Made by a program: the position numbers and the translations under genes
DNA from: an uncultured archaeon
GTDB lineage: Archaea; Altiarchaeota; Altiarchaeia; IMC4; SCGC-AAA252-I15
Assembly (NCBI GenBank): GCA_964423225.1
Contig: CAYREE010000002.1
Span: 10,278-74,277, forward strand
Length of the DNA stretch: 64,000 nt
Direction of reading: 5' to 3'
Notes under the pieces: generated by a model
What the model was told of the DNA's origin: nothing
Databases searched by the model: none
The model's input: the letters and a program-made list of their open reading frames with translations, nothing else
Shown: piece after piece, positions 9,703-61,360 of the stretch
Layout: every line of letters starts with the position of its first letter
Numbering within the stretch: the stretch's first letter is position 1

Positions 9703-10978
9703 CTAGTTTATCATATATGTCTTTATTCAACATGTCCTTGGTAATTCTCTGCATATTAAAAATTGGGGCTCTTCTATTTTTTTTAGTTGGTAGCATATGG
9801 GGTGCATAGAATTCCCAGACTATCTCCCCATCCATTGTGACCTCAAATAACTTTCCTTTATTGCTGTATGTAATCAATGTGTTTCCATTTTCTAATCTTT
9901 GACTTCCGCTCCTTGAATCAGAGTAAAAATCTTTTTTTACATCAGATTCATATTTCCAGATTATTTTTTCTTCTATTGGATTATATTCGATAACCCTCGA
10001 ATAGTTTCTATGATTTCCATTATCAAAGATCAGGATATTTCCATTGTCAATTATGCTTGGATTATGCGGGTAGTCAAGTTCGTTCATACCCCAATACCAT
10101 TTCAAGACCTTTTTTTCGATGTCTAGTATAGCGATCATGTTCAGATGTTTGATGCAGATCAAAAGGTCTCCTCTCTTTGAAATAATTGAATCTTGTTCAA
10201 GATAGTCGACGGTATTAACATGGTATATATCAATCCCATTCTTCATTGATCGCTTATCTGATATACTCAGATTCGTGATGTATGATCCTTCGTCAAGTTT
10301 TTCATGTATCTTTTCAAGTGCATTGTAGTTTATCCTGGAATCTGTTTTTTCTAAAGTGTCATAGATGGATATAATCTCCTTCAATGATCCGTCTGGATTA
10401 AGTTTTGTGATAAGCGTATCCCATATCCTTAATTCAGTGCCGTTAAAGTTTATGTTTTTTAATATATCCTGGATAGCATAGTGGTTTCCATCTTCGTCCA
10501 TATCCATGTCATGGTGATATATCTCATTTTTTTTAAACAATATCTTTGAATCCCAGTCAAGTTTGACTATAGCATTCCTATTAGATAATATTAACAAGCT
10601 ACCGTCTGGAAAGAGCCTGCCATTCTTAAGTTTTTCAATATATTTTTTCGGTACTTTCCAAGAGTGAACAACGTTTCCATCCATGTCTAAGAGTTCAGCA
10701 ATCTCTAGATTAAGGGGTATATACAGGTTATATCCTGGATATGCTTTTTTTAAATCGTATTTTACAACACCTTTCAGATTTAATCCGTCTTCATCTTCAT
10801 CTGTTACGTATGGTAGATACCCTAGACCAAATAGACGTTCGTTTATACTATTTACTAAGCTCTCCTTCCCATTGTCGTTCGAATTGTTAGGTTGATTAGA
10901 TAGCAGGTGATATGTCAGGATTGTCGTAAGTAGGATGAGTGATAATAGATATGTCTTTTTCATTTGTTCTTCAACCAA
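9695..10978 (-). CDS. Arylsulfotransferase (ASST)-like beta-propeller protein, N-terminally membrane-anchored (paralog 1)
   Basis: N-terminal TM or signal segment and conserved His/Asp blocks (YHHDMD, YHVNTVDY, IFDNGNHRNYSRVIEYNP, ENGNTLI) shared with the two downstream paralogs. Confidence 0.55.
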   Translation of the reverse strand: MVEEQMKKTYLLSLILLTTILTYHLLSNQPNNSNDNGKESLVNSINERLFGLGYLPYVTDEDEDGLNLKGVVKYDLKKAYPGYNLYIPLNLEIAELLDMDGNVVHSWKVPKKYIEKLKNGRLFPDGSLLILSNRNAIVKLDWDSKILFKKNEIYHHDMDMDEDGNHYAIQDILKNINFNGTELRIWDTLITKLNPDGSLKEIISIYDTLEKTDSRINYNALEKIHEKLDEGSYITNLSISDKRSMKNGIDIYHVNTVDYLEQDSIISKRGDLLICIKHLNMIAILDIEKKVLKWYWGMNELDYPHNPSIIDNGNILIFDNGNHRNYSRVIEYNPIEEKIIWKYESDVKKDFYSDSRSGSQRLENGNTLITYSNKGKLFEVTMDGEIVWEFYAPHMLPTKKNRRAPIFNMQRITKDMLNKDIYDKLGG

Positions 10979-40812: not shown

Positions 40813-41979
40813 TTAGAGAAATCCTACTACACTCTTGATCTTATACCTGCTATAGTTTCTCCTAGCCTGTGAATAATACATCCTGTATCTGCCATCCTTC
40901 ATCCTTACAATGTCTGGATCGCTTGCGATATCTGAATCTCGTTCAGGTACTATTCTTATCCCTTGATCCAGTTTGAAGGACTTTCCATCTCGTGAGCTTG
41001 CGCTTAGGATGACTGATGCAGTATCATTATCCATGTTCTTTGAAGTGAAATACAGTTTATATACTCGTTCTGGGAGTATGAAGGATTTAGGATCTGATAG
41101 AATAGTATTACCAAAGACTATCCTTGATTCCCTATGCCAATTAGATCCATCATCGAAAGAAAGTGCAGTCCTCAACCATCTTCCAGTACTATAATACATC
41201 CTTAGTGTGTTGTTCGGAAGCCTTATTACCTCCGGGTCTGCGACATAAAGCTTGTATGGATCATCTGAATCCTCATAATCCTGGAATCTAACGTCTGGTT
41301 CTTTCACCCAGTTGAATAAATCATCTGAGATAGCACTGTAAAACCTTTGTTCAGCCGGCAGACGCTTCCACATACTCTCAATCCATTCCATACCCCCCTG
41401 ATCAACGCCTTCATAAATCATCCTATAACTCCCGTTTAACAGACGATAAACACAGGGATTGGCAATCGCTCTTTGCCCTTGCACACCACCACTTAATACT
41501 GTCCCATTATCAGCATATGATAATCCCCTATCTGATAATGCAATACGAATCTCATTTTCCCTAGAATAGAACATAATATATCTTCCATCGACAAGTAGAG
41601 TGTCGGATTCCTTCCCATCTTCAAGTCTTGTATCAGTCTCTCGAGTAAAATATAACAAAGCATCGATTGGCAGTATCAATGTCGTTGTTGTACCTGTTGT
41701 CGTTGTTGTTGTACTGGTAGTTGTTGTTGTGGTTGACGTTGTTGTTTTCTTAATAGTGGTTGTAGTCGTCTTTAACGTTGTCTCAGTAGTCCTAATAATC
41801 TCAATCTCGTCTATATCAATTTCTGTGTATTCATAGATAGTCTCCTTGATAAAAGTCAGGGTATCCGACCCGAAATTCACAAGGAAGAATATTAATATTA
41901 TAATGGGGATGATGATCTGAGGATGCTCCCTGACCTTGTTCACCCGCCCCGTAATACTTTTCAGATTGAAACCTACCAT
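40813..41979 (-). CDS. Membrane-anchored extracellular protein with poly-Thr linker and beta-propeller glycosidase-like domain (GH43/GH32/GH130-like)
   Basis: N-terminal TM, about 35-aa Thr-rich linker, then Asp/Tyr-rich blocks (MFYSRE, YRMIYEG, LRMYYSTG, YRMYYSQ) typical of 5-bladed propeller glycosidases. Confidence 0.4.
   Translation of the reverse strand: MVGFNLKSITGRVNKVREHPQIIIPIIILIFFLVNFGSDTLTFIKETIYEYTEIDIDEIEIIRTTETTLKTTTTTIKKTTTSTTTTTTSTTTTTTGTTTTLILPIDALLYFTRETDTRLEDGKESDTLLVDGRYIMFYSRENEIRIALSDRGLSYADNGTVLSGGVQGQRAIANPCVYRLLNGSYRMIYEGVDQGGMEWIESMWKRLPAEQRFYSAISDDLFNWVKEPDVRFQDYEDSDDPYKLYVADPEVIRLPNNTLRMYYSTGRWLRTALSFDDGSNWHRESRIVFGNTILSDPKSFILPERVYKLYFTSKNMDNDTASVILSASSRDGKSFKLDQGIRIVPERDSDIASDPDIVRMKDGRYRMYYSQARRNYSRYKIKSVVGFL
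41690..41790. repeat. Imperfect (GTT/GTC)n microsatellite encoding the poly-Thr linker
   Basis: gtcgttgttgtacctgttgtcgttgttgttgtactggtagttgttgttgtggttgacgttgttgtt. Confidence 0.7.
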
Positions 41980-52979: not shown

Positions 52980-53438
52980 CTATCCGCATATTCCTTCAAT
53001 CTTCTTAGTTCCCGTGAACTCGATTCCGGTAATAGCATTATCCCGGTCATCAAACACGAAAGCAACTTCTAGGGCATATGGCTGGTCTGCAACACATGCT
53101 GAACCAAGGTCGCGTTTTACTGTCTCGGTCTTACCTACTAATAATACTAGGTTTGCCGCCTCTGTTACCACTACTCCTGGATTACCAACAGTCATACTCG
53201 AGATAACAATCGTGTAGTCCTGATTGTTTCGTATCGTGAAATACGATACACCGCTTTCAACAACTTTCCAGTTCAAAATCCCCATTTCTGCTCCTCTCCA
53301 ATAGGATTTTGAGGCCTGGATTCCGGCTCCGGCTCCTATGTCTATAAATCCTCCTAATACCGTCACCACTATTAGCGCGACAATCACTACTACTGCGAGT
53401 ATCACGAGATACTCTGTGGATAATTGTCCTTTATCCAT
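52980..53438 (-). CDS. Archaeal type IV pilin-like protein with class III signal peptide (major pilin candidate 1)
   Basis: MDKGQLSTEYLVILAVVVIVALIVVTVLGG: KG-Q cleavage site followed by a hydrophobic helix. Strong SD TAGGAGGTGT upstream. 83% identical N-terminus to the paralog. Confidence 0.75.
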   Translation of the reverse strand: MDKGQLSTEYLVILAVVVIVALIVVTVLGGFIDIGAGAGIQASKSYWRGAEMGILNWKVVESGVSYFTIRNNQDYTIVISSMTVGNPGVVVTEAANLVLLVGKTETVKRDLGSACVADQPYALEVAFVFDDRDNAITGIEFTGTKKIEGICG

Positions 53439-53487
53439 GAAACACCTCCTATAGATTTATTCTATATTTTTATTATATGATTGTGTT

Positions 53488-53512
53488 AAAAAAAGAGGGG
53501 TTATTCCTGTTT
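53488..53512 (-). terminator. T-tract terminator after pilin paralog 2 (AACCCCTCTTTTTTT)
   Basis: Same CCCCTC-T7 motif as downstream of paralog 1, immediately 3' of the stop codon. Confidence 0.45.
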
Positions 53513-53983
53513 TTAGCAGGTTCCCTCTATTTTCTTAACGCCGTCAAACTTTAGGTCTGCGATAGTGTGGTCTACATCCGTGTATATCACACTAACGGCT
53601 GCTGCATATGGCGATCCTGCACTTCCTGCCGCACATGTGCTGATGTCCTGATTCACTGTCCTGCTTTGTCCTGGATTAAGTGTCAGAGATACCATTCCTC
53701 CACCTCCTCCTATCACTGTGACTCCATCCACTGTGAACGAAGTAATCTGGATTGTGTAATCCAGGTTGTTTCTCACCGTGAAGTAGGAACTACTGCCTGC
53801 TAATGCTACCTTCCAATTTAATAGTCCGATGTCTGCTCCTCTCCAGTAGGACTTTGATGCTTGCACACCTGCTCCTGCACCGATGTCTATGAATCCTCCG
53901 AGGACTGTCACGACTATTAAGGCTACTATGACAACGACTGCAAGGATGACCAAATATTCCGTTGATAATTGTCCTTTATCCAT
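53513..53983 (-). CDS. Archaeal type IV pilin-like protein with class III signal peptide (major pilin candidate 2)
   Basis: Identical first ~50 aa (MDKGQLSTEYLVILAVVVIVALIVVTVLGGFIDIGAGAG). SD GGAGGTGA sits 5 nt upstream. Confidence 0.75.
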   Translation of the reverse strand: MDKGQLSTEYLVILAVVVIVALIVVTVLGGFIDIGAGAGVQASKSYWRGADIGLLNWKVALAGSSSYFTVRNNLDYTIQITSFTVDGVTVIGGGGGMVSLTLNPGQSRTVNQDISTCAAGSAGSPYAAAVSVIYTDVDHTIADLKFDGVKKIEGTC

Positions 53984-54039: not shown

Positions 54040-54996
54040 TTACTGTATTTTTATGTAATATCTGATAGCGTAAAATACTATCAGTGTGATTGGCACTATT
54101 ATGATAGCGTACTTCAGCCCGTATTTTTCTTTTCCCTTGTTTATAACTCCGATAAGCAGGCTTGCGATAAATGATGTGCCGACTATTATTAATGTGGATA
54201 CGTTCATGAGGAATTCTATGCTGAATGTTTCTGCCATGAATAAACCGATCCCCATATTATTCACATCTGATATATTGAAATTGCTTTTCAACTCATTCAT
54301 CCTCTCTGTGAAGTGTATGGACACGTTCATCAATACTGGCATTCCAACGACTATGGTTAGTAGGATGAGTATAGTGTATGTCCTTGTGCTTGATATGAGT
54401 TGTCTTCTAAGCATCAGGTTCTCATTGATGTCTCTCGCGGTTTCTTCTAGTATCTTGGCTAAGTAGCCGCCGGATTCGATGCTTCTTATGAATAGTTTTA
54501 TTGATCTTTCAAGTACTGGAAGTCTTATATTCTGGTTTATCTCCATGAGTGCACTGGAAAAAGATTCTGTCCCCAAGGCTTTTGTAGTTGCTTTATCAAG
54601 CTCTTCTTTTAATACACCAAATTCCTCTCTTGCTGATATCTTCATTGCCTGATATGGGGTCATACCTGCCCTGACATTGGATGCCATTAGTTGTAGAACG
54701 CTTGGAAGCACTTCTTCAACGGCTTCCCCCCTCTTTTCGGCTATGAAAAATGGTATTGAGTATGCTCCAACCAGATAGACTATGAACATCACGAATGCTA
54801 ATACGTGAAATAGCAGTGGTTCTCCGTATCTTCCTATATACTCGGTGACAAGTGCTACTAATACAGAGTATAACAGGCTTTTACCCAACCAGACTTCTGC
54901 CTCCACATTCATGCCTGCAAATTTGATCATGTCAGCCATATTCTCTACCATTGTTCTGGGGTAGAGCCTTGATAATGCTATGTAGAATCGTCTCAT
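54040..54996 (-). CDS. Pilus/T2SS platform protein, T2SS-F domain (TadC-like)
   Basis: T2SSF domain (LQLMASNVRAGMTPYQAM...LERSIKLFIRSIESGGYLAKILEE) plus TM helices. The start is set at the Met 2 nt after the upstream stop; the track's longer basic N-terminus is out-of-frame overlap. Confidence 0.65.
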   Translation of the reverse strand: MRRFYIALSRLYPRTMVENMADMIKFAGMNVEAEVWLGKSLLYSVLVALVTEYIGRYGEPLLFHVLAFVMFIVYLVGAYSIPFFIAEKRGEAVEEVLPSVLQLMASNVRAGMTPYQAMKISAREEFGVLKEELDKATTKALGTESFSSALMEINQNIRLPVLERSIKLFIRSIESGGYLAKILEETARDINENLMLRRQLISSTRTYTILILLTIVVGMPVLMNVSIHFTERMNELKSNFNISDVNNMGIGLFMAETFSIEFLMNVSTLIIVGTSFIASLLIGVINKGKEKYGLKYAIIIVPITLIVFYAIRYYIKIQ

Positions 54997-54998
54997 CG

Positions 54999-55883
54999 TT
55001 AAACGTATACTACCGGCCTCCTGCTTTTTATGAATTCCATTAGTGCTATTTGTACGAAAAAGCATACTGGGATCATTATGTAGAATATTTTTGGGCCTAG
55101 TTCGACTCCGAGGAATGGTCCTAGGACTATTATTAGTGTTGTTGCGATTGTTGGCATGACTACTGCGAAGAGCATGTATATTAGTACCATTACATTGAGT
55201 TCTTGGGCATAGTTTCTGATCTTCATTTTTTGTTCCATTGTCAGGTCTTTTACGAGTTCTCTTAGTATGCCTTCTAGGCTTGATCCTGATTTTAATGCGT
55301 TTATTATCTGCCATACGCTGTTTTTAAGGTGTTCGCTTCTTGTGTGTATGGCTAGTTCTTCTAGTGCGTCTTCTACTGGTACTCCAACATTGGCTTTTTT
55401 CACGACTTTTGCTATCTCATGGGATATGCTGCCGTATCCTGAGTGGGCTACTTCTGTTAGGGCTGTGTATGCTGATGCTCCTGAACTGACTTCTAATAGC
55501 ATGTCTTTTAGTGCGAAAACAAGGTCTCTGTCGATTTGTTCTGCTTTTTTTCCGGCTAGGATTCCGGGGTATGATAATAGTACGAATAGGAATAATCCTA
55601 GGATCAGTGTGAATACCATTAGGGTCATGGAAATTACTTTTTGTTGTTCTGTGCCTACCGCTGTCATTAGCGTGTATATTAGTCCGCCAACAAGTAGTGC
55701 GGTGAATAATGCGGATAGTATTGAGGCTCCTACATAGTCTTCAGCACCTACATCAAGGTCGGTTTCCATCAAGTCTATCCTAAGCTTAGGATATACTGCC
55801 ATGAGCTTGTGCCATAGGTTATTCCATTTACTTGTTAACCGTATCCCCACTCTTAGGGGTATCAACATTAGTGGTACTTCCAT
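54999..55883 (-). CDS. Pilus/T2SS platform protein, T2SS-F domain (TadB-like)
   Basis: T2SSF domain (LKDMLLEVSSGASAYTALTEVA...ALEELAIHTRSEHLKNSVWQIINALKSGSSL) plus TM helices. Confidence 0.65.
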   Translation of the reverse strand: MEVPLMLIPLRVGIRLTSKWNNLWHKLMAVYPKLRIDLMETDLDVGAEDYVGASILSALFTALLVGGLIYTLMTAVGTEQQKVISMTLMVFTLILGLFLFVLLSYPGILAGKKAEQIDRDLVFALKDMLLEVSSGASAYTALTEVAHSGYGSISHEIAKVVKKANVGVPVEDALEELAIHTRSEHLKNSVWQIINALKSGSSLEGILRELVKDLTMEQKMKIRNYAQELNVMVLIYMLFAVVMPTIATTLIIVLGPFLGVELGPKIFYIMIPVCFFVQIALMEFIKSRRPVVYV

Positions 55884-55890
55884 CGGTATT

Positions 55891-58800
55891 CTATTCCTTC
55901 TTTTTCTTTCCTAGACCCAACATGGACTTTATTGTCGGGCTCATCCTTTTTGCGAATAATTTGTTTAATGCTGAGTCTTTTTTCTCTTCTGGTTTTAATG
56001 GGATTTCAGTGTCTGAGACTGGTTTATCTTCTTTAGAGTCTTCGGCACTGGTTTTTTCCTCTTCTATCGCGTGTTCTAATATTTCCTCGGGTTTTATCGT
56101 GTCCTCGTCCGCTATTGCGAATGGAGAAGGCTGTAAATCAGGTTTTTTCTCTTCTTCTTGGATTGTTATCTGTGGATCTTCTGGTTCTTCTGGCATAGTA
56201 TCAAACAATGATTTTGCTCTCGTTGACATGGGATCATCTTGAAATGGTTCTTCTTTCTCCTCGGGTATTTCAGGTTCTGGTTTTATTATCTGGTCTGTTT
56301 GCTCTTCTACTTCATCTTGTCCTATCATTGCCTTCATTGTCGGACTCATTTTATCATCGAATATTTTGTCTAATTTTGTTTTGTCTTGTAGTTTTGTATC
56401 TTCTTCAACAGGCTCTTGGATTTCTTTTTTAGTTTCTTCTTGTATTGATTTTTCAGTTGTTGGTTCGGGTTTTTTCACTGGTTCTTTTTCCTGTTCACTT
56501 GAACCCATCATCGCCTTCATGGTTGGACTCATCTTTTCTGCGAATGGATCGTCAAATCGAGGGTCTTTCGGGCCATCGAAGACTTTTTTATATGGTTCAA
56601 CTTCTTCTTTTGATGTTTCTGGTTCTTGAGTCTCTGTGACCTCAAGTTTTTTGTCTGGAATCTCTTGGACTATCTGTGATTCTGGTTCTAATGCTTCTGG
56701 TCCGGTTTGTTCAGGAGTAGTTTGTGTTTCTTCTGTGATTGATGATCCTGGATCGATTTCTTCTGCTGCCAGGGGTTGTGGTTCGGTCACATCTTGTGGG
56801 AGTAATTCGGGTTTTTGTTCTATATCTGCTGTTTGTTTATCTAGTTCCTCTATTTTTTCTTCTTCTAACGGTGTTTTTTCCTCGGTTTGTTGTGCTATTT
56901 TTGGAGGTTCAATAATTCGATGTTTCTTTGGGTCTCTTTCCTTGATTTCTTCGATGGTTATTTTACCTTCTATCACTTCCTTTAGTTGTTCCTTGTTCTT
57001 GTAGTATAATTCCATGACTTCGCCGACTTCTTCAAGACTTCGATTATTGTTTTCATACATCCAGATCAATGTCTTCTTCTTTTCCTCTAAGTCTTTTAGG
57101 ATTTCCGGCCGACTCATTCCTGTATGTAGTGATAAATCCTCTAATACTCGGACGCTATCATTTACTTTTACGAACTCGTCAGTCCTTGTATTGTATCTGA
57201 ATAGATAATTTAGTTCGAATTCTTTGCCCTCGCTTCCAGGGCGTATCTCAGCTATCTCGAATACTTTTCGGGCACCTTTTTTCCGGTCCCTGTATACGAC
57301 TATCATCAAGTGCAGTGCCTCTATCTCAGCGCTTGGTAATGCTATTGGGGGTTCTAAAAGCCTTCTTTTAAGATTATGGACCGTATCTGCGTGAATTGTA
57401 CCATAGACACTGTGTCCTGTATGCATTGCCTCGAATAATACCTCGGCTTCACGCCGTCTTCTTATCTCTCCTAAGACTATCCTATCTGGCCTCATCCTTA
57501 GGGATGTCACTATCAGGTCGAGCATGCTTACTTCTCCCTTGCCTTCTGGATTAGCTTCTCTTGTCGTTAATGGGACCCAGTTCCATTTTAGGTAGCTTGG
57601 AAGATTGATTTCTCGAGTGTCTTCAATGGTTATGACTCTGTGTGTGGGTTGTATTAGTGAGCATAGGCAGTTTAACATGCTTGTTTTTCCTGATGCTGTT
57701 CCGCCTCCAACGATTACGTTTAGTTCGTATTGGAATGCTAGCCAGAGGAATGCGCCCATTTCTGGGGACATTGTGCAGATGTCTGGGCTTACGAAGTGTG
57801 CTATCGTCCATGGTTGTCTTGCGAATTTTCTGATAGTGATTGTGTTTCCAAAGTTTGATATCGGGAATAATGTCGCGTTTACCCTGTCTCCTGAGAGTAG
57901 GTGTGCGTCCATTATTGGATCCATGTTTGTTATATCTCTCTCGACTTTTCTACCTATCTGTGCAGCGTAATTGTATACCATCCGTTCATCGTCTAGGTGT
58001 AGTGTGGTCTCGACCCATCCGAATCTTTTATGGTATGCTGTAAGGGGGATGTGGCTGGTATTGATGCATACTTCTTCAAGCCAATCATCAGTCATTAGTA
58101 GTTCCATGTCTCCGAGACCGTACATTGAATGGGTCATCATTCCGGCAAGCATGTTCAAGTCGTCTTCATCTAATCTGATTTCTGAGTCTATGAGGTCTTT
58201 TGCTTCGGTGAAGAACGTTTCTTTTAACTCCCTCATCTTTTTTGTATCGGACATGTCTCCTACCCCAACTTCTATCTTTCCGCTTAACGCGTCTCTGAGC
58301 GATGTAATTAGGCTTCTTGTTCCAACTCCTATTATGGGCAGTGTCACCTCGTATATTGGTTTTGCCTTCTGGTCGCTTGCTATGATCTTGACGTGTGCTA
58401 CGACCTTGTCTGCAACGATCTTATAGCTGTCGAGGGTTTTACCCGTTATGTTAGTATCTGGGTCGTCTAGGGATACGGGTTTTGCAAGTGTCATCATAGG
58501 TTCTTTTAATAAATTGGATGGGTAGTCGAGTTTGAGTATATCTAGTGTTCTCGCCCATTTTTCGATCTTTTTAGGCTCTGTATTAGAAACGATCGCTGCG
58601 TCTGCGAGAGAGAGGTATTTACTCCTTGATAATGCTTCGATTAGGTAGTCTACTTGGGTGAATATTATCCTTTTTTCTCTGCTTTTTTCCGATATCTTCT
58701 CCTTTATTCTTTGACGCAGTATCCTTGGCTTGTTCCCTATTATGACTCCTTTTTTATTGATTTTTAGAAGTTCTTCTCTTTCGAGGATATGAGACCATTC

Positions 58801-59151
58801 TTCTATTTGTGTTGAAGTAGTCTCGAGTTTTTCAGCCGCCTCAAACACACTGATGCTTCCTTCTTGTTCCATTAGTTCAAGGAGATTTTCCTTGTTTATA
58901 CCAAACAAGCATCTTGATATGAGTTTATCTGTTGCAGAAATCTTTGGTGGACGAAGGAATCTCTTCACAACTTTTATCTGTCCTTGGTCTTCCAGTTTTT
59001 TAATGGTTTTTTTAAAATCTCTTTTACTTGCTTTAAATCTTTTTGCAGTCCTTTTAGCTTTGACAGTCCCCCTTGCCCTGATATGTCGGATCAGGGCCTG
59101 TGATAGTATGCCCCTTTCTCTTATCAACCCTGCTTTGTCCTTCAAGCCCAT
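55891..59151 (-). CDS. Type II/IV secretion-system ATPase (VirB11/TadA/FlaI family) with long N-terminal region and about 420-aa acidic repeat-bearing C-terminal tail
   Basis: Walker A GGGTASGKTS, ITIEDTREI, Walker B/Asp box RMRPDRIVLGEIR, His box HTGHSVYGTIHA. The tail is E/K/P-rich with MSPTMKAM repeats. Confidence 0.8.
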   Translation of the reverse strand: MGLKDKAGLIRERGILSQALIRHIRARGTVKAKRTAKRFKASKRDFKKTIKKLEDQGQIKVVKRFLRPPKISATDKLISRCLFGINKENLLELMEQEGSISVFEAAEKLETTSTQIEEWSHILEREELLKINKKGVIIGNKPRILRQRIKEKISEKSREKRIIFTQVDYLIEALSRSKYLSLADAAIVSNTEPKKIEKWARTLDILKLDYPSNLLKEPMMTLAKPVSLDDPDTNITGKTLDSYKIVADKVVAHVKIIASDQKAKPIYEVTLPIIGVGTRSLITSLRDALSGKIEVGVGDMSDTKKMRELKETFFTEAKDLIDSEIRLDEDDLNMLAGMMTHSMYGLGDMELLMTDDWLEEVCINTSHIPLTAYHKRFGWVETTLHLDDERMVYNYAAQIGRKVERDITNMDPIMDAHLLSGDRVNATLFPISNFGNTITIRKFARQPWTIAHFVSPDICTMSPEMGAFLWLAFQYELNVIVGGGTASGKTSMLNCLCSLIQPTHRVITIEDTREINLPSYLKWNWVPLTTREANPEGKGEVSMLDLIVTSLRMRPDRIVLGEIRRRREAEVLFEAMHTGHSVYGTIHADTVHNLKRRLLEPPIALPSAEIEALHLMIVVYRDRKKGARKVFEIAEIRPGSEGKEFELNYLFRYNTRTDEFVKVNDSVRVLEDLSLHTGMSRPEILKDLEEKKKTLIWMYENNNRSLEEVGEVMELYYKNKEQLKEVIEGKITIEEIKERDPKKHRIIEPPKIAQQTEEKTPLEEEKIEELDKQTADIEQKPELLPQDVTEPQPLAAEEIDPGSSITEETQTTPEQTGPEALEPESQIVQEIPDKKLEVTETQEPETSKEEVEPYKKVFDGPKDPRFDDPFAEKMSPTMKAMMGSSEQEKEPVKKPEPTTEKSIQEETKKEIQEPVEEDTKLQDKTKLDKIFDDKMSPTMKAMIGQDEVEEQTDQIIKPEPEIPEEKEEPFQDDPMSTRAKSLFDTMPEEPEDPQITIQEEEKKPDLQPSPFAIADEDTIKPEEILEHAIEEEKTSAEDSKEDKPVSDTEIPLKPEEKKDSALNKLFAKRMSPTIKSMLGLGKKKKE
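55918..56544 (-). repeat. Four in-frame copies (one degenerate) of a motif of about 14 aa, [FL]-x-[DEK]-[KR]-MSPT-[MI]-K-[AS]-M-[MIL]-G, in the ATPase tail
   Basis: DNA repeats ...ccttcat.gt.gg.ctcat... at about 55918-55965, 56321-56365 and 56503-56544, with a degenerate copy (DPMSTRAKSLFDTM) at about 56180-56247. Confidence 0.7.
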
Positions 59152-59152
59152 T

Positions 59153-59359
59153 TTACTTGATCTTATATGATTTTAATAATTTCACATATAGATTGTAGTC
59201 CTTCGATTTTGCGAATTTTTCAATATCCTCATCGTCTAGTTTCCCTAGTAAGTTGTCAAGGACTTTTAAAATTCTCCTAACCTCCCCTTTGCTAAGTGTT
59301 TCTCCGGTACTTTCCCTCGGAATCAATGCGTCGAGTCCTTTTACCTTTTCTTCGACCAT
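59153..59359 (-). CDS. Small hypothetical protein (68 aa) between ParA-like and ATPase genes
   Basis: Tightly packed ORF (0-1 nt spacers on both sides), charged and helical. Confidence 0.4.
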   Translation of the reverse strand: MVEEKVKGLDALIPRESTGETLSKGEVRRILKVLDNLLGKLDDEDIEKFAKSKDYNLYVKLLKSYKIK

Positions 59360-60316
59360 TTATATCAACTTATCTGCTATCTTCATGTATGCTGTACTAG
59401 CCTGAGCGTCTGGGTAAAGATCTATTATTGGTTTACCTTGTGCAGATGCTTCACTCACCTTAATATCTCTGTCTATCATGATGTCAAATACTGTTTCTTT
59501 TAGATAGTTCTTTACCTCAGCCATTATCTTGTTTGAAAACTCTGAGTTGGGTTCATGCATTGTTAGTATTGCCCCATCGATATGTAGTCCTGGATTAAGT
59601 CTGTCTCTCACAAGTTCGATAACCTTCATGAATGTTGTGAGGCTTTCAACAGCGAATTGGTCTGACTGGACTGGTATTAGGACAGAATCAGCTGCTGTAA
59701 GAGCATTGATTGTAAGTAGGCTAAGTGATGGTGGGCAATCAATTATTATAAAATCATATTTTTCTCTTAAGGGCGTTAACACATCGTTTAAACGATTTTC
59801 CCTCCCTTTTAAACCCATTAATTCCACTTCCATTCCGACAAGATTTACTTCAGATGGAACGAAATCAAAGTCGAAGTCTGTTGTTACAATGCTTTCTTCG
59901 ATCGGGGCTGTTAATGAGAGTATGTCATATGTATTGCATTTCACTTCTTCTGTATGTCCTAGTAGGCTTGATGCATTGGCTTGTGGATCAAGGTCAACAA
60001 GAAGAACTTTTTTATCCAGTTTTGCCAGGCAGGATGATATATTAATTGAAGTAGTTGTCTTTCCCACTCCGCCCTTATGGTTGGAGACACTGATTATCTT
60101 GCAGTTGCCTGGTTTTTCAGGAAGCTTACCTGTTTTTGATATACGATAGTCTACAAAAAGTGGTTTTCTAACCTTTAAGTATCCTTCTTTCTGGAGTTCT
60201 TTACAGTGTTTTATCAGTGTTTTCTTGTCTAATTCAAGTTCTTTTACGAGGATGTGAGCTTTAACTTCTCCAGTGTTCGGAATCTCCCTGAGGATCATTA
60301 ATTGTAATGGGTCCAC
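59360..60316 (-). CDS. ParA/MinD-family ATPase with N-terminal winged-helix domain (TadZ/CpaE-like position in pilus operon)
   Basis: Deviant Walker A KGGVGKTT and DLDPQAN. About 75-aa N-terminal wHTH-like region. GTG start (or ATG at Met7). Confidence 0.7.
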   Translation of the reverse strand: MDPLQLMILREIPNTGEVKAHILVKELELDKKTLIKHCKELQKEGYLKVRKPLFVDYRISKTGKLPEKPGNCKIISVSNHKGGVGKTTTSINISSCLAKLDKKVLLVDLDPQANASSLLGHTEEVKCNTYDILSLTAPIEESIVTTDFDFDFVPSEVNLVGMEVELMGLKGRENRLNDVLTPLREKYDFIIIDCPPSLSLLTINALTAADSVLIPVQSDQFAVESLTTFMKVIELVRDRLNPGLHIDGAILTMHEPNSEFSNKIMAEVKNYLKETVFDIMIDRDIKVSEASAQGKPIIDLYPDAQASTAYMKIADKLI

Positions 60317-60376: not shown

Positions 60377-61360
60377 TTATTGGCAGCAGCAGGTATCGGC
60401 CTGCGGCCCGCCCTTACAATATACATCTCCCTCAGTTTCGTGTGTGCCACCCCCTGGGCAAACACTGTTTTGCTTACAACTACCCCCAGCATAGCCTTTT
60501 ATTCCACAGACTTTTTCACATTCTCCTAAATCTATTTGTGGTGTTAGCCATATAGCATCTTTTCTATATATATTATCCTTGAATTCCACGCTAATATTGC
60601 TTCTAATACCTACGATTGGGATGTCTTCCATGATAATTCTTGTTTCAACCTCTCCTATTGTATTTCCCTGTTTGGATAGGACAATTGAGTAGTCATGGTT
60701 ACTTCCATCTATACTGTTTCTGCCCACGTTGATAAAAACCTTTCCAGTCGTGAAATTCAATGTCAATTGAGAGTTACCTGAAGGATTGACGAAGTATGTG
60801 TCTTCAAAACCCATATTAGAGAACGAGCCATTCAATAGGATGCGCTTACTGCCTCCCTGTGTCTCATCCACGACATTTACTAGGTTCATATCATAGTCGA
60901 AATATAGTTCATATGCATAGATTTCAGAATCCCCGGTCTTATTATATATTCTGATATAATCCTTGTTGTATGAGTTATAACCATATATCAATGGTGTTGG
61001 TTCTAGTGTAAATTCAGGATTATTCAGGCCAGATAATATTATTTCTGAATACACCCTGCTAGAATACTGGTTCTCAATGAAGTTCTTATATTCATTTAAC
61101 TGGGTTATTCCCCCAGCCAGCGGAAACCCATCTTTTACTGAGACTACAGTACGTCCTGAATCATAATACACCCTTGCATTTATCCCTAGTATATCTTCAA
61201 GATCAGTTGCAATGTCGGCAAATACTGTCCTAGTCTTCTCTGAGTATATATCCTCCTTCACTCCGACTTTGACATAATATGTTGCCAGTGAAAAAACACT
61301 TAATACTAGCATTAGACAAAGAATTGAGAAGAGCAGGCCTCTATTATTCATCTTAACCAC
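60377..61360 (-). CDS. Pilin-like or secreted protein with class III-type signal (NNRG-LLFS) and Cys-rich C-terminus
   Basis: N-terminal RG followed by a hydrophobic helix. The C-terminal 60 aa hold 11 Cys (CEKVCGIKGYAGGSCKQNSVCPGGG...CCCQ). Confidence 0.5.
   Translation of the reverse strand: MVKMNNRGLLFSILCLMLVLSVFSLATYYVKVGVKEDIYSEKTRTVFADIATDLEDILGINARVYYDSGRTVVSVKDGFPLAGGITQLNEYKNFIENQYSSRVYSEIILSGLNNPEFTLEPTPLIYGYNSYNKDYIRIYNKTGDSEIYAYELYFDYDMNLVNVVDETQGGSKRILLNGSFSNMGFEDTYFVNPSGNSQLTLNFTTGKVFINVGRNSIDGSNHDYSIVLSKQGNTIGEVETRIIMEDIPIVGIRSNISVEFKDNIYRKDAIWLTPQIDLGECEKVCGIKGYAGGSCKQNSVCPGGGTHETEGDVYCKGGPQADTCCCQ

Follow-up and report, generated by a model that had tools for sequence, protein, structure and literature searches.

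A lineage-specific, predicted disordered tail with a repeated methionine-rich motif on the assembly ATPase of an archaeal Tad/Epd-like pilus locus

A pilus-assembly ATPase with an additional C-terminal tail

We analyzed a 64-kb stretch of DNA from an uncultivated Altiarchaeota population (the window: positions 10,278 to 74,277 of GenBank contig CAYREE010000002.1), and in particular a 1086-codon open reading frame (ORF) at positions 55891–59151. Unless another contig is named, coordinates are those of the window, and all the features that they delimit are on its minus strand. The ORF, already listed in a preliminary description of this DNA, is uninterrupted, and by Pfam matches and comparison with homologs it codes for an archaeal type-IV-filament (Tad/Epd-like) assembly ATPase followed by a long tail. 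The pilus locus is of the type IV, Tad/Epd-like kind, and the first 730 amino acids (aa) of its assembly ATPase are an ordinary protein of the clade. To this ordinary pilus motor is joined an orphan tail, predicted to be disordered, which bears three copies of a short motif and for which, judging from its sequence, a function is plausible.

The preliminary description had recognized a VirB11/TadA/FlaI-type ATPase core with Walker A, Walker B, Asp and His boxes, and this assignment holds. The Pfam profile T2SSE (PF00437) matches aa 428–600 with a score of 102.4 bits (cut-off 24.9). In an alignment of 52 sequences (the query and 51 homologs), which was also the input for AlphaFold2, the invariant residues, all present in the query, include G483, T485, G488, K489 and T490 of Walker A (GGGTASGKTS, aa 482–491; 57679–57708), E510, R513 and E514 of the Asp box, D556, R557, G561 and E562 of Walker B, and H577, T578, G579, H580, T585 and H587 of the His box. 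A FlaI/GspE-like N-domain, a RecA-like ATPase domain and C-terminal helices together span aa 236–730 (56962–58446) and end in ...KEVIEGK. The AlphaFold2 model of the core reproduces the two-domain fold of solved secretion ATPases, and its top Foldseek matches are 2OAP, FlaI and CpaF (E = 1e-33 to 1e-18). A. fulgidus GspE (PDB 2OAP) and S. acidocaldarius FlaI (4II7, 4IHQ) share this core (phmmer E = 3.5e-58 and 1.3e-48; Foldseek E about 1e-33). Profile score, catalytic residues, fold and genomic neighborhood all place the protein in the archaeal FlaI/GspE-like branch of the secretion ATPases. Its closest homologs are ATPases from Candidatus Altiarchaeota metagenome bins (47–69% identity), and those of DPANN archaea come next.

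Two narrower assignments were rejected. The protein scores 251.5 bits against NF058587, the NCBIfam equivalog for the archaellum motor FlaI (cut-off 550), and its genomic context is wrong for that role: the neighbors are a ParA-like gene, a 68-aa ORF, two split platform genes and pilins, instead of archaellins, FlaH and a single FlaJ. Against the bacterial TadA/CpaF model TIGR03819 it scores 162.5 bits (cut-off 373), and the resemblance to those proteins is one of locus architecture only.

The N-terminal part of the protein (aa 1–235; 58447–59151) is made up of three units that are conserved in Altiarchaeota homologs and missing from the solved GspE and FlaI proteins. AlphaFold2 models this part with a per-residue confidence (pLDDT) of 75–97 and with the secondary-structure order H-E-H-H-E-E three times over; from this order and from weak Pfam matches (HVO_A0114) we infer that the units are winged-helix-like. 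An N-terminal region of about 250 aa had been called unusually long, but its length proved to be normal for the clade. It is confidently folded and aligns along its full length with Altiarchaeota homologs, and Walker A lies at position 483 or beyond in 48 of 120 homologs, with a median position of 442 (here and below, homolog counts are among the 120 family members listed).

The tail is long, acidic and predicted to be disordered

The conserved C-terminus of the family corresponds to about residue 730 of the query. Almost all homologs (115/120) stop between 246 and 283 residues past the start of Walker A (median 258), and the nearest relative ends in ...LLGMVEGK*, aligned with ...LKEVIEGK at aa 730. 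Nearly the whole 2OAP chain aligns to aa 256–722, and the solved GspE and FlaI proteins, at about 511–513 residues, end where the query core ends and have no C-terminal tail. Because the conserved protein ends at about aa 730, the tail is 356 residues long (aa 731–1086; 55894–56961). The earlier figures, a core ending at about aa 650 and a tail of about 430 aa, therefore need correction, and the ATPase is enlarged by about 50% rather than doubled in size.

The tail is acidic and rich in E, K, P and T, as first described: its net charge is −46 to −47 (−0.13 per residue, as against about zero net charge beyond the core in homologs), its charged fraction is 0.42 and its proline content is 11%. 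The AlphaFold check that had been proposed for it was run. The model is confident over aa 1–741 (pLDDT 80–97 in the core) and falls below 50 over aa 742–1062, with values of 29–45 along the tail; a charge-hydropathy analysis agrees, placing the tail on the disordered side of the boundary. The tail is an extension known only from one lineage, a single uncultivated Altiarchaeota population, and consists of a strongly acidic, Pro-rich chain that is disordered in these predictions. The solved or characterized FlaI, GspE and CpaF proteins have nothing like it, which bears out the earlier remark that it is not a feature of characterized relatives.

One way to read such a composition is that the tail acts mainly by electrostatics: the −46 chain would fold back on the first N-terminal unit, or stretch over to it, as an autoinhibitory lid that mimics nucleic acid, with the motifs described below adding contacts. 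Unit 1 (aa 1–80; 58912–59151) has a net charge of +20, compared with +9 to +12 in the three nearest tail-less homologs and −11 to +4 in the next eight, while the net charge beyond the core goes from about zero in homologs to −46 in the query. Against this reading, the correlation comes from a single lineage (n = 1), AlphaFold2 gives no confident contact between the tail and the core, and a thrice-kept Met-rich motif and a polybasic end would be left unexplained. We consider a mainly electrostatic role quite improbable. As a separate observation, the basicity of unit 1 may be co-adapted with the tail.

The core and tail form one reading frame in two assemblies

The core and the tail meet at GGT AAA ATA ACC (56956–56967). 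Removing one A from the A4 run in this sequence gives ...EVIEGK followed by TAA, which is exactly the end of the family, at K730. Judging from the sequence, the tail was probably joined to the ATPase when the insertion of one base destroyed the ancestral stop codon, and the junction would be the scar of that event.

That a single base restores the canonical end would also be expected of an assembly or sequencing artifact, in which a homopolymer error in A4, or a chimeric join, falsely fuses a 730-aa ATPase to downstream sequence. The A4 run is the only spot where a homopolymer error would matter, and there two assemblies agree. An 8.7-kb contig from a JGI metagenome (L003) codes for a protein of equal length (P0121) that is identical to the query at 1083 of 1086 residues. 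The window and L003 have 3 differences in 8706 nucleotides (nt), and the 76-kb NCBI contig and the 8.7-kb JGI contig agree base for base at A4 and over the whole tail, a substitution at codon 783 (below) apart. In a third dataset, a tail fragment that is 100% identical (P0122) lies on a public ENA scaffold whose N gap and unrelated flanks mark it as a chimera, and this one scaffold speaks for an artifact. On the other side, besides the agreement of the two assemblies, an unfused tail would amount to about 1.07 kb of open coding sequence, with host-like codon usage, that has no start codon near its beginning. We regard an artifact as very improbable; the ORF is continuous in two assemblies, and no frameshift splits off the tail as a separate ORF.

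All three differences between the window and L003 are in the ATPase gene and all are nonsynonymous: P211Q and L214F (58510–58520), and L783S (56804), at codons 211, 214 and 783.

The frame of the tail contains no stop codons, compared with 2–31 in the other five frames of the same DNA, and the tail prefers the same synonymous codons as the core. A separate downstream ORF was rejected as an explanation, as there is no in-frame start after the junction until a GTG at codon 788 and an ATG at codon 874. Nor did we find support for a programmed +1 frameshift at AAA-ATA-A that would give a 730-aa isoform: since ATA is the Ile codon used most, the junction lacks the hungry codon that such a shift would need.

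Three copies of a Met-rich motif in the tail

The tail contains three copies of a motif of about 14–18 residues with the consensus hydrophobic-x3-[KR]-M-S-P-T-[MI]-K-[AS]-M-hydrophobic-G, in which the first position is Phe in 3/3 copies. Copy 1 is at aa 866–883 (FDDPFAEKMSPTMKAMMG; 56503–56556) and copy 2 at aa 927–944 (LDKIFDDKMSPTMKAMIG; 56320–56373). Copy 3 is at aa 1062–1079, and with the polybasic end that follows it makes up the last 25 residues of the protein (aa 1062–1086, LNKLFAKRMSPTIKSMLGLGKKKKE; 55894–55968). A hidden Markov model (HMM) built from these three good copies scores them at 49.4, 52.3 and 47.3 bits, respectively, whereas the best of 500 shuffled tails reached 3.7 bits. 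Eight positions (F, M, S, P, T, K, M and G) are invariant across the copies. The motif strings FAEKMSPTMKAMMG, FDDKMSPTMKAMIG and FAKRMSPTIKSMLG are encoded at 56504–56532, 56321–56349 and 55916–55944, and a degenerate DNA pattern encoding M-S-P-T-[MI]-K-[AS]-M-x-G recovers exactly these three known sites in the window, with no matches in 100 shuffles. We found the motif in no other frame or gene of the window.

All 11 methionines of the tail fall in four hydrophobic islands, namely the three motif copies and a putative fourth. Four copies were counted in the preliminary description, of which three are highly significant by the shuffling test and the degenerate fourth is indistinguishable from chance: the alignment score of DDPMSTRAKSLFDTM (aa 972–986) is no better than that of a shuffled tail (p ~0.4). 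The island to which it belongs (aa 969–986, PFQDDPMSTRAKSLFDTM; 56194–56247) has two Met and two Phe residues in an otherwise Met-free linker, and is possibly a decayed copy, though statistically unsupported. The motif had also been described as a set of DNA repeats. Motif-coding DNA is indeed present at the sites that were given, but over 72 nt the identity among the copies is no more than about 65%, and neither Tandem Repeats Finder nor a second repeat finder detected the motif DNA as repeats, so the repetition is at the level of the peptide. On the same grounds we rejected a recent DNA duplication as the origin of the motif.

Copies 1 and 2 use different codons at 5 of 13 identical residues, the copies are near saturation at synonymous sites, and the linkers that flank them cannot be aligned with each other. 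Synonymous codon differences together with eight invariant residues mean that the three copies are old duplicates maintained at the peptide level, the peptide having apparently been kept by selection while the linkers diverged.

AlphaFold2 gives copies 1 and 2 helices of just 3–4 residues (in copy 1, aa 876–879), with pLDDT below 50 around both. Repeated Met-rich amphipathic motifs on a tail predicted to be disordered, the central point of the preliminary description, are present. They share two properties with known short linear motifs: their surroundings are disordered by pLDDT and charge-hydropathy, and they form conserved islands in unconserved flanks, here among three copies within one protein only. 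The third usual property, conservation in orthologs, was not seen, because no ortholog with the tail was found and the other copies of the gene are 99.7–100% identical. Overall, we think it likely that the tail is real, translated and disordered, and that its motifs are under selection. To our knowledge, long disordered regions with repeated, selected short motifs are uncommon in archaeal proteins.

The tail has no detectable relatives

Tail-less relatives have the same gene order as the window (ParA-like, 68-aa, ATPase, two platform genes, pilins), which is syntenic in the loci L001 and L002, and also in L003. In these relatives the first platform gene follows the ATPase at a distance of only 5–25 nt, with no separate gene between. 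The preliminary description had set store by conservation of the tail in close homologs. We surveyed them and found the tail absent: at 65–69% identity and in syntenic loci, the homologs are about 730 aa long. As a conserved trait, then, the feature fails by that description's own criterion.

Sizeable C-terminal extensions are present in only 5 of 120 family members. That of P0003, which is closely related to the query, is charged, 58 aa long and unrelated to the tail. The extensions known in the DPANN/Altiarchaeota ATPase family besides that of the query (P0003, P0023, P0088 and P0098) are likewise low-complexity or charged, but they are 40–205 aa long, unrelated in sequence, and without the MSPTMKAM motif. 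P0023 (L010, 4658–6529) ends in ...ISALLYKLRRRRK and P0098 (L012, 1742–5179) ends in ...FDAKFASKFSKDFKDTKKGEFK, both amphipathic or polybasic. These two proteins are distant members of the family that gained their extensions independently, and no ParA-like gene adjoins the ATPase in either locus.

A phmmer search with the tail against 1.84 billion cluster representatives gave no matches, though the query's own cluster is apparently represented by a tail-less relative, which may hide close tail-bearers. Scans with the DNA pattern of GTDB species genomes, JGI metagenomes and IMG/VR, none of which returned the source contig itself, gave chance matches only: a 37-codon stretch from Prevotellaceae, which turned up four times, and a single out-of-frame match in high-GC DNA. 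A word-indexed protein search with the tail and the motif profile gave one match, to P0122 (the same gene), and missed the query's own protein, so its negatives are uninformative. A search of neighboring DNA and of the relatives' intergenic DNA for the origin of the tail (tblastx and blastn) gave low-complexity noise only, and we rejected both sources. In the literature we found no description of this tail, of this motif, or of any disordered C-terminal tail with motif repeats on a type-IV-filament ATPase.

This distribution would suit an evolutionary accident, in which an unrelated downstream ORF or insert was fused to the ATPase by the one-base insertion, the conservation of the motifs dates from its earlier life, and the tail now does little or nothing. 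A cryptic TAA, shifted by one base from the frame, marks the position of the ancestral stop, and the tail is absent from all relatives, lacks a detectable homolog, and is confined to one population. However, the relatives have no gene of its own between the ATPase and the platform gene, and the tail frame itself offers no start before the GTG at codon 788 and the ATG at codon 874. Its 356 stop-free codons with host-like usage point to long residence and translation, and eight residues of the motif are identical in spite of near-saturation at synonymous sites. In addition, unit 1 has gained about 8–11 positive charges relative to the closest relatives, hinting at co-adaptation. A neutral accidental fusion fits motif selection and host-like codon usage poorly, and we consider it unlikely.

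Genes next to the ATPase

Immediately upstream of the ATPase gene is a gene for a 68-aa conserved protein (59153–59359), whose N-terminus, [KR]GLD[AES]LIP[KR]ES, is kept in three Altiarchaeota loci (the window, L001 5626–5832 and L002 5333–5545; the core of the peptide is [KR]GLDxLIP). In the annotation of the contig the protein matches Pfam PF27359 (TP_0179). We take its N-terminal peptide to resemble the N-terminal peptide of ParB/Spo0J that stimulates ParA, and on this likeness the 68-aa protein may be a miniature partner or adaptor of the adjacent ParA-like ATPase. According to a review of the ParA/MinD family, partners typically bind through their N-terminal region. The ParA/MinD-family ATPase (59360–60316) begins, by profile and sequence, with a winged-helix (MarR-like) domain and lacks an amphipathic helix at its C-terminus. 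Its deviant Walker A is KGGVGKT.

Downstream, the first of two platform proteins, with a T2SSF domain by Pfam and TadB/TadC-like (54999–55883), starts 8 nt after the stop codon of the tail. The second, also with a Pfam T2SSF domain, is at 54040–54996, its start being taken from the L003 gene call. A mechanically called 424-aa ORF (54040–55314) overlaps platform gene 1 by about 316 nt; by comparison with the L003 gene call, the real platform gene 2 probably starts at 54996 and encodes 318 aa. Beyond the platform genes are two pilin genes with class III signal peptides by Pfam (52980–53983).

A possible membrane tether

We favor the interpretation, to which we give a probability of roughly 45%, that the tail is a lineage-specific flexible tether with docking helices, the end of which is anchored at the membrane. 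The tail would serve as the tether and the motif helices as docking elements. The terminal copy with the following LGKKKKE would act like the membrane-targeting helices of MinD, FtsA, CpaE or haloarchaeal MinD4, holding the motor at the membrane beside the platform proteins, and the two internal copies would add weaker contacts to the same surface or to a protein on it. Assembled into a hexamer, as its relatives are, the ATPase would carry 6 terminal and 12 internal copies per ring and would thereby gain avidity. The part of this interpretation that makes the membrane the target of the terminal copy is more tentative than the whole.

The evidence for a membrane anchor comes from copy 3. It is at the extreme C-terminus (aa 1062–1079 of 1086), after about 320 residues predicted to be disordered, and AlphaFold2 models it as a weak helix-kink-helix (aa 1059–1069 and 1072–1077). 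Its helical moment is 0.36–0.47, its charge is +4 to +5 and its lipid-binding discriminant is 1.66–2.1, above the threshold of 1.34 (HeliQuest formula), as in amphipathic-basic helices of the MinD/FtsA type. For what we take to be the targeting sequences of E. coli and B. subtilis MinD, the computed discriminant is 1.6–1.7. The two mutually unrelated polybasic or amphipathic ends found elsewhere in the family, in P0023 and P0098, would also count in favor of membrane targeting by the terminal copy.

There is precedent for this arrangement. In the MinD4 protein of Haloferax volcanii, a long C-terminal region ends in a membrane-targeting sequence that the protein needs in order to oscillate and to form polar patches. 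MinD4 and the MinD and FtsA helices offer the same architecture as the query, that is, a folded ATPase, a long linker and a terminal amphipathic basic helix, with comparable charge and helical moment. They differ in belonging to another ATPase superfamily, with no sequence homology detected. The query also has internal repeats of the motif that lack a basic patch, and its linker is much more acidic and of much greater length. A 2026 preprint reports that archaeal type-IV-filament ATPases bear N- and C-terminal additions that are specific to each subsystem, and proposes that these serve as interaction interfaces.

The bacterial Tad machine provides a second comparison. Its gene set (CpaF/TadA and CpaE/TadZ) is comparable to the locus described here, with an ATPase, two single-domain platform proteins and a ParA/MinD-family neighbor, and in it a ring of six dimers of CpaE, a ParA/MinD-family protein, surrounds the ATPase and is held at the membrane by an amphipathic helix of CpaE. 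In Caulobacter the amphipathic helix is on CpaE, whereas here it would be on the ATPase. The ParA-like protein of the window has a winged-helix domain and no terminal helix, whereas bacterial CpaE/TadZ has a receiver-like domain and a membrane helix. Caulobacter CpaF has a disordered extension of its own, NTD0 (aa 1–79), which is dispensable for pilus extension; this one is N-terminal, short and without motifs, unlike the C-terminal, motif-bearing tail of the query.

Several points weigh against a membrane tether. For the internal copies 1 and 2, the charges are −1 and 0 and the discriminants −0.01 and 0.32, which are non-lipid-binding scores, and both copies are flanked by acidic residues. 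A chain with a charge of −46 would be repelled by anionic lipids. The confidence of the terminal helix is low (pLDDT 54–59), and there is a proline inside the motif. The tail is absent from all homologs at 69% identity or less, despite their syntenic loci; with no tail in orthologs, the argument for a function is the conservation that the three copies show among themselves in this one protein. Finally, the strict invariance of S, P, T, K and G suggests a fit to a specific protein groove better than generic lipid binding.

This last point leads to the main rival of the membrane reading, a specific protein partner. The motifs would then be protein-docking peptides that recruit or cluster a partner, either soluble or one of the platform proteins, and so position or bundle motors multivalently. 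Candidate partners are the ParA-like ATPase and the 68-aa protein, the two platform proteins (through their cytoplasmic domains) and neighboring ATPase hexamers (through their winged-helix domains). Polar S-P-T, K and G residues that stay invariant in three old copies while the linkers are unconstrained are the usual signature of short linear motifs, and the internal copies lack the charge for lipid binding. Protein docking would also suit the six ParA/MinD-family dimers around the ATPase of the bacterial Tad machine and the preprint's proposal that archaeal ATPase extensions are interfaces for accessory proteins. On the other hand, in tail-less relatives the neighboring proteins have the same lengths, at 57–74% identity, with no new domain as a receptor, and the motif was seen in no other protein in the searches described above. 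The ParA-like protein and the 68-aa ORF, both suggested earlier, are less likely as partners because the pair is kept, at unchanged length, beside tail-less ATPases and because the 68-aa protein has an N-terminal peptide of its own (presumably ParB-like). Self-docking of the motifs on the core was rejected, as the AlphaFold2 monomer shows no confident placement of a motif on the folded part of the ATPase. We consider specific protein docking somewhat unlikely, and keep the membrane tether as the favored interpretation.

In FtsZ, a disordered linker leads to a short, conserved docking peptide with a charged end, and together they tether a polymerizing NTPase to its membrane partners. FtsZ has one C-terminal peptide that is conserved across phyla, whereas the tail has three copies in one lineage. 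A more ambitious version of the tether, which we think somewhat unlikely at present, is that the tail is a built-in multivalent positioning device, in which 18 docking helices per hexamer (if one is formed), on acidic tethers of about 350 residues, work by fly-casting. If it were true, the device would capture the membrane together with a specific partner and so cluster or localize pilus machines. It would also mean that an archaeal type-IV-filament motor is regulated by short linear motifs, of which we found no description, and that this regulation was created in one step by stop loss.

Should the tail prove to tether or position the motor, it would represent a third way of anchoring such machines, besides folded N-terminal adaptor domains and partners of the ParA/MinD family. 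It would also be a clean natural case of a new functional module born by stop-codon loss. Its practical value is limited by its restriction to a single uncultivated population.

Other observations in the window

Two further features of the window are recorded here. In the pilus locus, the gene at 60377–61360 codes for a 327-aa protein with a hydrophobic N-terminal segment and a Cys-rich C-terminus; its match to the Pfam family Defensin_2 (arthropod defensin), at 20.9 bits, is barely over the cut-off of 20.4. The sole other strongly low-complexity stretch in the window besides the tail is a Thr-rich run (41683–41832) in a 391-aa ORF, which is unrelated to the tail.

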